A DNA stretch of 41,355 nucleotides from Parcubacteria group bacterium (lineage in GTDB: Bacteria; Patescibacteriota; Minisyncoccia; Phycocordibacterales; DATDWN01): contig JBKJHK010000003.1 in NCBI GenBank assembly GCA_046599035.1, positions 1-41,355 on the forward strand, read 5' to 3'. Both the position numbers and the translations under genes were made by a program. Below are positions 17,942-23,007 of this stretch, piece after piece. Within the stretch, counting starts at the first letter, position 1, and each line of letters opens with the position of its first letter. A model generated the notes under the pieces. That model saw nothing but the letters and a program-made list of their open reading frames with translations. It had not been told where the DNA came from and did not search any database.

Positions 17942-20900
17942 TCAATTGATATTATCACTCTTGTGTAGAACTCCACGAATCCATTTGCGAGCACGAATGA
18001 ACATATCAGGATGCATACCGACAAAATAGAATACCGCAGGAGTTAAGAATATTGAGATAATAGTAGATGACACGAGTCCACCAAATATCACAACTGCGAG
18101 TGGGTGGAGTAATTCTTTACCCGGCTCTTCTGCTGCTAACATAAGAGGAATGAGGGCGAGAGCGGTAACCATAGATGTCATGAGTACTGGCACCAGTCTG
18201 TCTATCGTTGCTTCGACTACAACCTCTTTTGTAAGTTTACCAGCTTCTCTTACTTTACTTAGGCATCGTTCGATCAACAATATTCCATTACGAGACACGA
18301 TACCCGCAAGAGATATGAATCCAACAGTATGGGCGAGATTGATCACTCCCCCAGTTAGCCAGATAGCAATAATTCCACCAATAAAAACAGTTGGGATGTT
18401 CAACATGATCTGTAGTACAATTGGAATTTTTCGAAAGGCATAGAACAATATTCCAAAAATTAAACCGAGTGCAATGACAAACATCAATGCGAGACGAGTA
18501 CTATTTTCCTTTTGACTTTTGTATGTCCCTTCGTAGGATATAGCAATACCCGTTTTCAACTGTTTTGTATCCATTATCTTTTTTACATTTTCAACTGCAC
18601 CAACAATATCCTTACCTTGATAATTTGCAGTGACATTCATTACTCGTTTACCTCCTTCATGACTATATTTATTGCGACCACCCTCTATTCTGATATCCCC
18701 AGCATCAGAAAGCGTATCGACTGATTCGATTGGTAACGATAAATCACGGAGTGCAGTAGCGCTACCTTTTGAATTCTGATCAAACCGAAGCACTACATTA
18801 ATACGAGCACCTTCTTTCTGAACTTGACCAATTTCTTTCCCAAGTAAGCCCTCTTCGAGGGCATCGGCGACACGAGCGACAGAGACACCGTTTTCACCAA
18901 GTCTATTAGTATCGAGATAAATTCTAAATTCAGGGACAATCACCTCTTTTTGAATTTGAGGATTTTTTACACCATCTTGCTTTGCTAATTCGACCTTGAT
19001 GGTTTCGGCAGTTTCTTTCATCGCCCCTAGATCATCACCGAATACTTTCATGACAATAGGCGCTCTTACCCCGGACAGAGATTCTTCTACTTTATGCGTA
19101 ATTGGTTTTCCAAGCCCATAATCAGCACCTTTATAGAGGTCTAAAATCCCCTGTATCTCTTTCGACAAATCGTCTATTTTATTTTCGAGTCCAGGTTCAA
19201 AGATTACTTGTATCTCGCTCGTATTTGCACCACTATCATGAGGATCGGCCCCGGCACGCCCAGTGATATGGCTTACACGCGCAACACCTTCAATGTTTCC
19301 TATTTCTTTTTCTAAAATAGACGCAAAGGTATTTGAGGTATTGAGATCTGTTCCCGTAGGAAGCGTGACCGAGATAACAAGTGAGTTTTCATTAAATGGC
19401 GGAATACCTTCTTTTCCTGCAAACGAATAGAGTCCGACTGCGACAATAAGGGAGATTAATACTCCCAAACTAAGCTTCTTTATGTTATTGATGCTCCAGT
19501 AGATATGTGGGGTTATTTTTGTTTTTAACCATACGACCAGTTTTGTTTCACCTCGTTCGTTTGCCTCTATATTTTTTAATAGCAGTGCCGATAACGCTGG
19601 TGTAAGAGTGAGTGAAACTATAAGCGATGCAACGAGAGATATCAGATACGCAATACCGATTGAGGAAAGTAGCTTACCTTCGACATCTGGGATAAAGAAT
19701 ACTGGTAAGAAAACCACAACAACCAGTAATGTTGCATAGACGATTGAATTTCTGACTTCGACTGAAGCATTGAATATGACATCCTTAAATGGGGTGCTGA
19801 GTCCTTTATTCTTCCACTCTGTTAACCGATGGTGGATATTTTCTACATCAACAATAGCATCATCCACGAGCTCGCCGATAGCGATGGCAATACCACCGAG
19901 GGTCATTACATTAACCGACACTCCTATAAACTTAAATATGATTGCGCTGACTAGAATTGATACTGGAATAGCTGTGAGTGTAATGAGTGTAATTCTCCAT
20001 CTCATGAGAAAGAGTGAAACAATCAATATCACAAGCAGAATACCTTCAGCAAGGGCTTTTTTTACATTACTAAGTCCAGAATCAATAAACCACTGTTGAC
20101 GGAAAAGATCATTTTGAATTTTAACACCTGTAGGCAAGCTTTTACCGATTGTTACAAGCGCTTCATCTACCGACGTCGTAACTTTTAGTGTTTCTGCATC
20201 AGGTTGACGAGAAATACGCATGATTACACCAGGCTTCCCGTCTATCGTCGCAGCTCCACGAACAAGACTCGGACCTTCAATGATTGCTGCTACGTCCGCA
20301 AGCCTGACAGTTCCTCCAGCTTTATCTTTTCCGACTACTACATTTTGTAGATCTGCAATTTCTCGAGGTGCAACCATAATACGGATTGGATACTCTTTAT
20401 TTTTCTCAACCAGAAGACCTCCACTTTTATTATTAAGTATAGGCTCAAGTGAACCTGCAATATCTTCGACACCTATACCTAGACTTTTCATCGCAGTGGC
20501 ATTCATTTGAATCTGCCATTCCTTTACATCTCCACCTAAGACGATGATGTCAGATACTCCGGTTACACGCAGTAGTGCTGGACGTACCGTCCAATCAGCA
20601 AGCGTACGCAAATCCATACCTGACATATTTGGATCGTCCGATGTTACTCCGATCCACATTACTTCACCTAAAATTGACCCCACAGGACCCAACACCGGTC
20701 GAGCGCCGTTTGGCAACTCTAATCGTGATAGTCGCTCTTGGATAATTTGTCTATTGCGAAAAATATCCGAACCCCATTCAAATTCTGCATTTACAATTGC
20801 AAGCCCAAATGAAGCAGTGCTGCGAACACGGGTCACACCAGGAGCTCCTGATACAGCAGACTCCACAGGAAAAAGTATCAGTTTTTCTACATCTTCAGCA

Positions 20901-21070
20901 GACATACCTTCACCTTCAGTAAATATAGCAACAGTAGGTTTATTAATGTCTGGAAGGACATCAACCTTCATAGTGCTAAAGCTCCAAATACCTCCTATAA
21001 CGACGATAAGTGACAGTAAAACTACGATTCCTGTATGGTCGAGGGACCATTTGATTATTTTATTGAACAT
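17942..21070 (-). CDS. RND efflux pump, heavy-metal-efflux (HME) family, CusA-like
   Basis: 1042 aa with 12-TM RND architecture. The TM4 signature [25 protein letters not shown] closely resembles the CusA [25 protein letters not shown] segment as I recall it. Confidence 0.95.
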   Translation of the reverse strand: [1042 protein letters not shown]

Positions 21071-21078
21071 ATTATATC

Positions 21079-22803: not shown

Positions 22804-22827
22804 AGGTAATAAATATTGGTCTAGTAA

Positions 22828-23007
22828 TTACTCGTCATGTCCATGTGGCTGGCTCTCATCTTGGATAGGGGTATGCTCACCCGTAGTTTCATGAGTATGA
22901 TCTGTGTGACCATCTGATGCAGGATTAGTTCCCGGTCTTAAGATAAAAAATGCAGCACCAATTGCAAGGATAATGAGAACAGAAACAATAATAAGATTCT
23001 TTTTCAT
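22828..23007 (-). CDS. 59-aa membrane-anchored His-rich peptide
   Basis: Below the track cutoff. Hand translation is MKKNLIIVSVLIILAIGAAFFILRPGTNPASDGHTDHTHETTGEHTPIQDESQPHGHDE. The last 11 aa are identical to the adaptor C-terminus. Confidence 0.65.
   Translation of the reverse strand: MKKNLIIVSVLIILAIGAAFFILRPGTNPASDGHTDHTHETTGEHTPIQDESQPHGHDE

Follow-up and report, generated by a model that had tools for sequence, protein, structure and literature searches.

A candidate two-component RND metal efflux operon with a long-stalked adaptor in a Patescibacteria contig

We analysed a stretch of 41,355 nucleotides (nt) from a Parcubacteria group bacterium (GenBank assembly GCA_046599035.1, contig JBKJHK010000003.1, positions 1 to 41,355; "the window" in the following) and focus on its minus-strand operon 23007..17942, which encodes a His-rich peptide (59 aa), an adaptor (574 aa) and a pump (1042 aa) of the resistance-nodulation-division (RND) type. 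Systems of an RND pump and an adaptor are three-part machines of double-membrane bacteria. For the operon studied here, we consider it somewhat better than an even bet that it equips a monoderm Patescibacterium with a metal efflux system which has two components, crosses the envelope and is independent of an outer-membrane factor (OMF). The evidence comes from the operon layout, the modelled structure and conservation of the adaptor, the OMF searches in the window and in related loci (numbered L005 to L015), and the assignment of the host.

Results

Operon layout

The transcription unit is composed of the following elements.

22830..23007, minus strand: 59-aa membrane-anchored His-rich peptide, first gene of the operon (from sequence; MKKNLIIVSVLIILAIGAAFFIL...DGHTDHTHETTGEHTPIQDESQPHGHDE)
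21079..22803, minus strand: adaptor (membrane-fusion or periplasmic-adaptor protein), 574 aa (HlyD_3, TIGR01730, AlphaFold2 (AF2), Foldseek)
17942..21070, minus strand: RND permease of the heavy-metal-efflux (HME) type, NieA/HME5-like, 1042 aa (open reading frame (ORF), Pfam, NCBIfam, alignments)
17896..17925, minus strand: intrinsic-terminator-like hairpin with U-run (sequence and RNA folding)

An earlier note, made from the sequence alone, had placed the pump and adaptor at 17942-23007, where both ORFs are indeed found on the minus strand, and the end coordinate it used for the system (23007) coincides with the start of a real ORF, i.e., that of the 59-aa peptide. This ORF sits 26 nt upstream of the adaptor gene and combines a transmembrane (TM) anchor with a His-rich segment, whose C-terminal DESQPHGHDE is identical to the adaptor tail. 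In L013 and L008, the adaptor gene is likewise preceded directly by a homologous small ORF, which encodes 56 aa in L013 and 60 aa (lipoprotein-like) in L008. Only 8 nt separate the adaptor stop codon from the pump start codon. The terminator-like hairpin begins about 17 nt past the pump stop codon and folds at -23.2 kcal/mol (z = -5.6), which was equalled by none of 200 shuffled sequences. Since this terminator directly follows the pump, the unit consists of peptide, adaptor, pump and terminator, with no space for a third downstream gene.

The adaptor and its helical stalk

At 574 aa, the adaptor exceeds the length of E. coli CusB (407 aa) by 167 aa, in agreement with the surplus of about 150 aa that had been proposed. 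The difference is located in an insert between the two halves of the lipoyl domain. The adaptor features discussed below are:

21724..22467, minus strand: alpha-helical insert of 248 aa (aa 113-360) between the lipoyl halves (AF2 models of the whole protein and of the insert alone)
21988..22203, minus strand: hairpin tip subdomain (aa 201-272, with short helices 225-241 and 248-263); predicted local distance difference test (pLDDT) score 86-98 in two models
21082..21159, minus strand: C-terminal disordered adaptor tail ending in QDESQPHGHDE, putatively metal-binding (pLDDT <50)

Overall, the protein comprises an N-terminal TM anchor (aa 6-22), the insert-split lipoyl domain, a beta-barrel, a membrane-proximal domain and a C-terminal HGHDE tail. 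Sequence models see only the N-terminal lipoyl half (aa 80-110) and aa 312-550 of it. HlyD_3 and TIGR01730 (RND_mfp) match aa 312-546, the latter with 91.8 bits given a cut-off of 94.9. The four-domain adaptor fold is present in the AF2 model (43-sequence alignment, pLDDT 80), for which Foldseek reports E-values of 1e-18 to 1e-19 to AcrA, MexA, MacA, EmrA, CusB and Spr0693 as well as a probability of 1.00 to AcrA, MexA, MacA, EmrA, ZneB and CusB.

Within the insert, AF2 places an ascending helix at aa 117-200 (117-165 and 168-200 with a kink at 166-167) and an antiparallel descending helix at aa 273-358. The insert modelled by itself shows the same topology (pLDDT 89.7). Given 1.5 Å per residue, the helices of 84-87 residues would form a stalk of about 125-130 Å, a value that is derived from residue counts and not from coordinates. 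With regard to the earlier description of a long Ser/Asn-rich and coiled-coil insert, the two long antiparallel helices are thus recovered, while the Ser/Asn-rich part is confined to the kink of the first long helix (about aa 155-178), where conservation and model confidence are lowest within the insert. The tip has a conserved core (G220, L240, P247, Y254, L261); outside this core, none of the hairpin residues reaches 90% conservation. A Foldseek search restricted to the insert had no match at E<=0.001 and gave only generic antiparallel coiled coils (Smc coiled coils, dynein stalks); the idea of the insert as a mimic of the TolC alpha-barrel is unsupported.

We also compared the insert length with that of other adaptors:

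Window adaptor: 248 aa
L009 adaptor: 283 aa
L008 adaptor: 319 aa
CusB: 54 aa
Magnetospirillum adaptor: 67 aa
Hymenobacter adaptor: 70 aa
AcrA: 77 aa
MacA: 91 aa
EmrA: 123 aa
Synechocystis CopB: 144 aa

An exhaustive profile search delineates a discrete adaptor family of 110 clusters at E<=1e-30 with full-length members of 537-670 aa, below which the matches change abruptly to ordinary adaptors of about 400 aa. The insert measures 200-339 aa in 118 of the 124 full-length family members (median 248.5) and 100-139 aa in the remaining 6. Low-complexity filler, which had been named as a possible objection, is therefore not what we see: the insert is conserved in these 118 relatives and modelled with a pLDDT of about 90. 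That is, as judged from the models and the family, the additional length of the adaptor is genuine, has a defined structure and is conserved. Its tails are nearly always rich in potential metal ligands (66 His-rich, 56 Met-rich, 2 neither among the 124 members). Finally, we searched for the TolC-docking RLS motif as R-x3-L-x6-S, for which E. coli AcrA (R128) and MacA (R131) served as positive controls. It was not found in the window adaptor, and any match within the insert occurs in only 18 of 122 long-insert relatives.

Search for an outer-membrane factor

The window contains no recognisable TolC/CusC-like gene, as had been claimed before. None of its ORFs of at least 110 aa has an OEP/TolC Pfam match and all seven ORFs of at least 400 aa have assignments. 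Searches via tblastn with CusC and two TolC partners of the nearest diderm homologs likewise found nothing, neither in the window nor in L005-L015. Because tblastn is insensitive between divergent OMFs (the Hymenobacter TolC failed to match CusC), the absence rests mainly on Pfam annotation and ORF sizes. Within 10 kb on each side (or up to the contig end) of eight related loci, Pfam did not find OEP either. The closest plasmid homologs in diderms, on the other hand, sit in TolC-adaptor-RND operons and have short hairpins (67-70 aa).

Class and metal site of the pump

The pump is a full-length RND protein, i.e., Pfam PF00873 (ACR_tran) matches residues 5-1017 on model positions 1-1020 of 1021 with 735 bits. 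Multidrug models of NCBIfam (497, 383 and 317 bits) score clearly behind TIGR00914 (CusA/CzcA), and among PDB sequences ZneA (388 bits) exceeds CusA (352) and MdtB (246). Sequence identity is 25.7% to CusA, 33.2% to Synechocystis CopA and about 39-41% to the NieA-type pumps of Magnetospirillum and Hymenobacter. For a residue-wise comparison, we aligned the pump with E. coli CusA, E. coli AcrB, Synechocystis CopA, the two best plasmid homologs and 18 homologs from the candidate phyla radiation (CPR). The central feature is:

19838..19882, minus strand: TM4 motif (15 residues, aa 397-411) with the proton-relay pair D403/D404 (alignment to CusA, AcrB and Synechocystis CopA)

The TM4 string quoted in the earlier note is found verbatim in the pump. 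Its interpretation as a CusA signature does not hold, since 13 of the 15 positions are shared with AcrB but only 9 with CusA. According to published class signatures (PMC7060636 Fig. S7), CusA/SilA carry AVGX3DAAX3IEN, the NieA type AIGX3DDAX3VEN and Synechocystis CopA/NrsA AIGX3DDSX3MEN; the window pump reads AIGX3DDAX3VEN, which is the NieA-type signature. The latter is also carried by hydrophobe/amphiphile efflux pumps (AcrB, AcrD), such that it alone is insufficient for an assignment to NieA/HME5.

CusA has a methionine triad (M573-M623-M672) in the periplasmic cleft (PMC8092243). In the window pump these positions align with S567, T617 and E663, which bears out the tentative suggestion that the triad is lost, and methionine occupies just 1 of the 54 triad residues of the 18 CPR homologs (P0119, M573 position). 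The CusA methionine relay pairs M410/M501, M403/M486, M391/M1009 and M271/M755 (three transmembrane, one periplasmic) are reduced to M391, i.e., 7 of 8 methionines are absent. Concerning the CusA proton relay D405-E939-K984, D403 is retained while E939 is replaced by R927 and K984 by V962. The AcrB relay, in contrast, is complete (D407/D408/K940/N941/R971/T978 correspond to D403/D404/R927/N928/R958/T965).

We then inspected the proximal site, i.e., ZneA positions 136/602/610/654/658, where the window pump has E136-H611-E619-H659-E663 (E-H-E-H-E) and CusA has W-D-E-N-M. In the scheme of PMC7060636, NieA is described by E-H-E-H-H and CopA/NrsA by T-D-H-H-E, and NieA has in addition the motifs HAEGVH and HRLDH. 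The window site agrees with NieA at 4/5 and with CopA at 2/5 positions, while the two NieA motifs read HDSGAN and HKVEE and each lost its second histidine. In the CPR homolog set, each of the five proximal-site residues shows a conservation of at least 90%. Given these alignments, we classify the pump as a member of the NieA/HME5-like branch of heavy-metal RND pumps, with a predicted proximal site that is an intermediate, CPR-specific His/carboxylate variant of this uncharacterised branch. The earlier label "CusA-like" is not supported: the protein has a full-length RND architecture and CusA/CzcA as its best NCBIfam model (below cut-off), but TM4, relay and metal site are NieA/HME5-like and not those of CusA (HME4).

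Host and contig

A CPR-type host had been considered as a possibility, and protein similarities place it in CPR/Patescibacteria. Ribosomal protein L11 from the same contig falls into one cluster (>=90% identity) with L11 from metagenome-assembled genomes (MAGs) of Minisyncoccia, Parcubacteria and Patescibacteria, where Minisyncoccia is a class within the phylum Minisyncoccota. The best 120 pump homologs are 59-90% identical, and their taxon-level names are all Patescibacteria or Magasanikbacteria, with one given only as '[bacterium]'. Adaptor homologs carry the names Parcubacteria, Paceibacterota and Liptonbacteria. Some of the pump homologs are located on contigs of 0.4-1.3 Mb, and two of these contigs (L008, L009) carry Patescibacteria-named proteins.

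Outside of the metal island described below, the window encodes ribosomal proteins L11 and L19, NusG, FolD, UppS, RuvX, PilM/N and five tRNAs. Since housekeeping genes and tRNAs flank the island, we take the contig to be chromosomal. The GC content ranges from 0.33 to 0.45 across the window and from 0.38 to 0.42 over the operon. As signs of a recent insertion, we looked for tRNA-His-derived direct repeats and an integrase in the window and found none. CPR bacteria are treated as monoderm (PMC12102498; bioRxiv 10.1101/2021.05.31.446380). As a side observation, PilM- and PilN-like genes at 38121-40182 (minus strand) place type IV pilus assembly machinery on the same contig, and PilM-like genes are also found near the pump in L009 to L011.

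Metal island and regulators

All neighbours from 13.4 to 29.9 kb are metal-related and encoded on the same strand, i.e., the operon is surrounded by a copper-type island of about 17 kb:

29554..29883, minus strand: classical CsoR (C-H-C) at the island head
27252-29549, minus strand: CPC/HMA P1B-ATPase
24346..25281, minus strand: 311-aa membrane-anchored His-motif protein with two repeats of an invariant H-x4-H...H-x-H-P; weakly YtkA/Ig-like
17486..17767, minus strand: CsoR/RcnR-family repressor downstream of the pump terminator (Pfam Trns_repr_metal and alignment with relatives)
14286-16433, minus strand: CPD-type His-rich P1B-ATPase, in which CPD replaces the usual CPC/CPH transmembrane motif
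13389..29549, minus strand: rest of the metal island, with an HMA-DsbD_2 protein, two cupredoxin-like proteins, DoxX, two DUF305/CopM proteins, DUF6629 and the two P1B-ATPases listed above

The island holds the motifs expected of a Cu(I) P1B-ATPase (CPC, YN, MxxSS), a C-H-C CsoR and an operator palindrome. The latter is a perfect 33-nt palindrome (GACCCATTATACCCCCATGGGGTATAATGGGTC, 29819-29851) that overlaps the best sigma-70-like promoter match before the C-H-C CsoR and is likely its operator. A second copy was found neither elsewhere in the window nor upstream of the pump operon. From this context, the exported metal is predicted to be probably copper. The repressor adjoining the pump has C37-H62-H66, i.e., the RcnR-like x-C-H-H fingerprint and not the Cu(I)-type C-H-C. 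This fingerprint is shared by the L008 ortholog (L008 4470-4742), while L012, L013 and L014 have C-H-C. The CPD P1B-ATPase gene comes after this C-H-H gene; its product has a His/Met-rich N-terminus (MNHDHSQHNKEV...HSGHEDH...MSMTMSMGMEHGG), lacks an HMA domain and keeps the Cu-type YN and MSxSS.

The repeats of the 311-aa protein read HEKxMH...QHxHP and GH...IHxHP. In L009, L011, L012 and L014 its gene immediately precedes that of the adaptor; in L013 a single small His-rich ORF comes between the two. The family has at least 679 relatives, all annotated as hypothetical and some with a weak YtkA match; a profile search with the protein gave no relative of solved structure. We regard it as a candidate extracytoplasmic metal-handling partner. 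Two further observations concern the island itself. In the CopM-like protein at 13389-14009 (minus strand), the DUF305 unit is duplicated internally in tandem, and the repeats are spaced 288 nt apart in the DNA. A 124-aa membrane ORF (23083-23457, minus strand) shows a lipoprotein-like LLSSC N-terminus and no family match, and a 40% identical ORF is found at a similar island position in L013.

Related loci

The metal context recurs around the operon in L008, L012, L013, L014 and L015. When scanning genome contigs with the pump, we obtained 3 loci, two of them titled Gammaproteobacteria. That is, the MAG records of L005 and L006/L014 carry the operon under the title 'uncultured Gammaproteobacteria bacterium'; they cover 2.9 and 16 kb with 40% GC and a CPR-type gene order, and the titles are probably due to mis-binning or mislabelling. 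The L015 contig (65% GC) encodes at 8722-13162 a 61%-identical pump along with a 434-aa adaptor, whose insert is 102 aa long and has no tip domain. Its copper island includes DUF305, YHS, Csp, a P1B-ATPase and an integrase, and no OMF is found nearby.

Discussion

Proposed mechanism

An OMF-independent efflux system could work as follows. The P1B-ATPases would place the metal, most likely copper, outside the membrane, where the His/Met-rich adaptor tails, the 59-aa peptide and the 311-aa His-motif protein would hand it to the extracytoplasmic cleft of the pump. The proton-driven pump trimer would then drive the metal up its funnel into a hexameric adaptor tube, which would lead it outward through the wall and S-layer zone in place of TolC/CusC. 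A role of the stalk as a duct, which the earlier note had put forward, would be consistent with the missing RLS docking motif and with the precedent of Spr0693 from Gram-positives. A more far-reaching version, to which we give rather less than an even chance, is a Patescibacteria-wide self-contained RND machine, whose adaptor hexamer forms a tube of about 125 Å with a novel-fold cap that spans wall and S-layer and functionally replaces TolC.

Several points weigh against OMF-independent efflux. The OMF search covered only the window and 20-kb neighbourhoods in relatives, and the Synechocystis copBAC operon has no OMF gene either although its host is diderm. The best NCBIfam model of the pump, TIGR00914 (CusA/CzcA), scores 620 bits, which is under the model's cut-off of 701. 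The metal is uncertain, given that the proximal site resembles the putatively Ni-specific NieA type and that the adjacent regulator is C-H-H instead of C-H-C. The tip domain may plug rather than open the putative tube. Furthermore, small cations should cross the cell wall by diffusion, such that the benefit of a duct is not obvious. Finally, since the L015 pump is paired with a short-hairpin adaptor and no OMF is found nearby, the long stalk is not universally coupled to the pump and may be dispensable.

Alternative explanations

It is possible, though in our view rather unlikely, that the system is still tripartite, i.e., that the stalk tip docks to an unrecognised outer partner such as a pore in the S-layer, a channel other than TolC or an OMF whose gene lies elsewhere. 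A structured tip with a conserved core (G220, L240, P247, Y254, L261) and no structural match would suit such an interface, and both the 20-kb extent of the searched neighbourhoods and the Synechocystis copBAC case, in which an OMF may be encoded away from the operon, leave room for a distant gene. On the other hand, no OEP match is observed in nine loci, no hairpin residue outside of the tip core is 90% conserved, the RLS motif is absent and CPR bacteria are regarded as having no outer membrane.

We deem it equally improbable that pump and adaptor form a plain membrane-level exporter, in which the coiled coil acts as spacer, anchor (e.g., in the wall) or regulator and not as a conduit. Ions have no obvious need of a wall duct, the same pump occurs with a short hairpin in L015, and Foldseek sees the insert as a generic antiparallel coiled coil. 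Yet all adaptors of the four-domain fold with a solved structure assemble on their transporters as hexameric funnels or tubes (cf. the Foldseek matches and Spr0693), and the insert length is tightly conserved (118/124 members).

The remaining two explanations have next to no credit with us. A genuine CusA-type Cu(I)/Ag(I) pump with a methionine shuttle would be in line with the best NCBIfam model (CusA/CzcA), the copper-type context and the 9/15 shared TM4 positions, but is refuted at the sequence level, i.e., the triad is replaced by S, T and E, E939 by R and K984 by V, 7/8 relay-pair methionines are absent, identity is 25.7% to CusA vs. 40.4% to NieA-type homologs, and the CPR homologs show methionine at 1/54 triad residues. 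A diderm origin of contig or operon (mis-binning, chimera or very recent horizontal transfer), which would render the missing OMF an artefact and had been named as a possible refutation, could draw on the two MAG records titled Gammaproteobacteria and on the nearest cultured homologs being found in diderms; against it, the operon lies between L11/NusG and L19/tRNAs/PilM on one 41-kb contig of even GC, diderm homologs are at most 41% identical vs. 59-90% for CPR, homologs occur on 0.4-1.3 Mb contigs, neither tRNA-derived flanking repeats nor an integrase were found in the window, and the 'Gammaproteobacteria' contigs are short with 40% GC and CPR-type synteny.

Significance

In the literature on RND, adaptor or metal-efflux systems in CPR and other monoderms, we found no description of this system in CPR. 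If the more far-reaching version given above is true, it would be the first OMF-independent trans-envelope RND efflux system. A pump-adaptor pair that is conserved in a large single-membrane radiation raises the question of what role an adaptor has in a cell without an outer membrane, and by which route such systems persist or emerge once that membrane has been lost. With its giant stalk, the adaptor provides a concrete and testable structural hypothesis, and the stalk could be used as a molecular ruler to gauge the CPR envelope, which is poorly known. That nearly all adaptors of the family carry a His- or Met-rich tail points to a mechanism of metal hand-off unlike that of CusB/CusF. The results are also of relevance for annotation, since such proteins are now labelled 'CzcA family' or 'Cu/Ag efflux pump CusA'.

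Comparison with known systems

The closest class are the NieA-type pumps ('HME5?/class 6'), known from nieIC-cep-nieBA of Cupriavidus neocaledonicus and from homologs on plasmids of Magnetospirillum sp. XM-1 and Hymenobacter. The latter two are the closest homologs found in the annotated plasmid collection (39-41% identity). The NieA type shares with the window an identical TM4 signature (AIGX3DDAX3VEN), 4/5 positions of the proximal site (E-H-E-H-x), His-rich adaptor tails and a metal/copper genomic context. It differs in the TolC-family gene of the operons, hairpins of 67-70 aa, diderm hosts and the position of the adaptor's His tails, which are N-terminal compared to the C-terminal tail of the window adaptor. 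The function of NieA itself is only predicted (nickel). The 547-aa Magnetospirillum adaptor was considered as a long-stalk counter-example from a diderm and rejected, because its surplus is an N-terminal His-rich extension and not a hairpin.

The copper efflux system CopBAC of Synechocystis PCC 6803 (HME5), together with CopM, resembles the window in several respects: an RND-adaptor pair accompanied by DUF305/CopM, an operon without OMF gene, the DD motif in TM4, a proximal site ending in H...E and an enlarged adaptor (525 aa, 144-aa insert). Since its host is diderm, any outer-membrane channel would be encoded outside of copBAC. The pumps are 33% identical, regulation is by the two-component system CopRS instead of a CsoR-family repressor, and the CopB insert is about 100 aa shorter than that of the window adaptor and has no tip domain.

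E. coli CusCFBA likewise combines an RND trimer with an adaptor, handles metal from the extracytoplasmic side, and has a flexible metal-binding adaptor tail and a small accessory metal-binding protein. In contrast, the window system lacks the methionine triad, the E939/K984 relay and 7/8 relay-pair methionines, no CusC counterpart is found in the window, the adaptor insert is 248 aa compared to 54 aa in CusB, and CusA is only 25.7% identical to the pump.

Elongated antiparallel coiled-coil hairpins are also known from EmrA and HlyD, which serve major facilitator superfamily pumps and type 1 secretion, respectively, and EmrA structures are among the Foldseek matches of the window adaptor. Their transporters are without tall periplasmic domain, they dock tip-to-tip on TolC and have no inserted tip domain; the E. 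coli EmrA insert (123 aa) is about half as long as that of the window adaptor.

The MacAB-like system Spr0693-0694-0695 of the Gram-positive Streptococcus pneumoniae differs in its ATP-binding cassette transporter (not RND), its peptide/antibiotic substrates, the absent tip domain and a barrel of 56 Å vs. about 125 Å estimated for the window adaptor. Its Spr0693 hexamer is a nanotube that was proposed to carry substrate across the inner wall zone, with a 56 Å high barrel and an apex 154 Å above the membrane. With the window system it shares an adaptor in a monoderm and the lack of a recognised OMF, and Spr0693 is among the Foldseek matches of the window adaptor.

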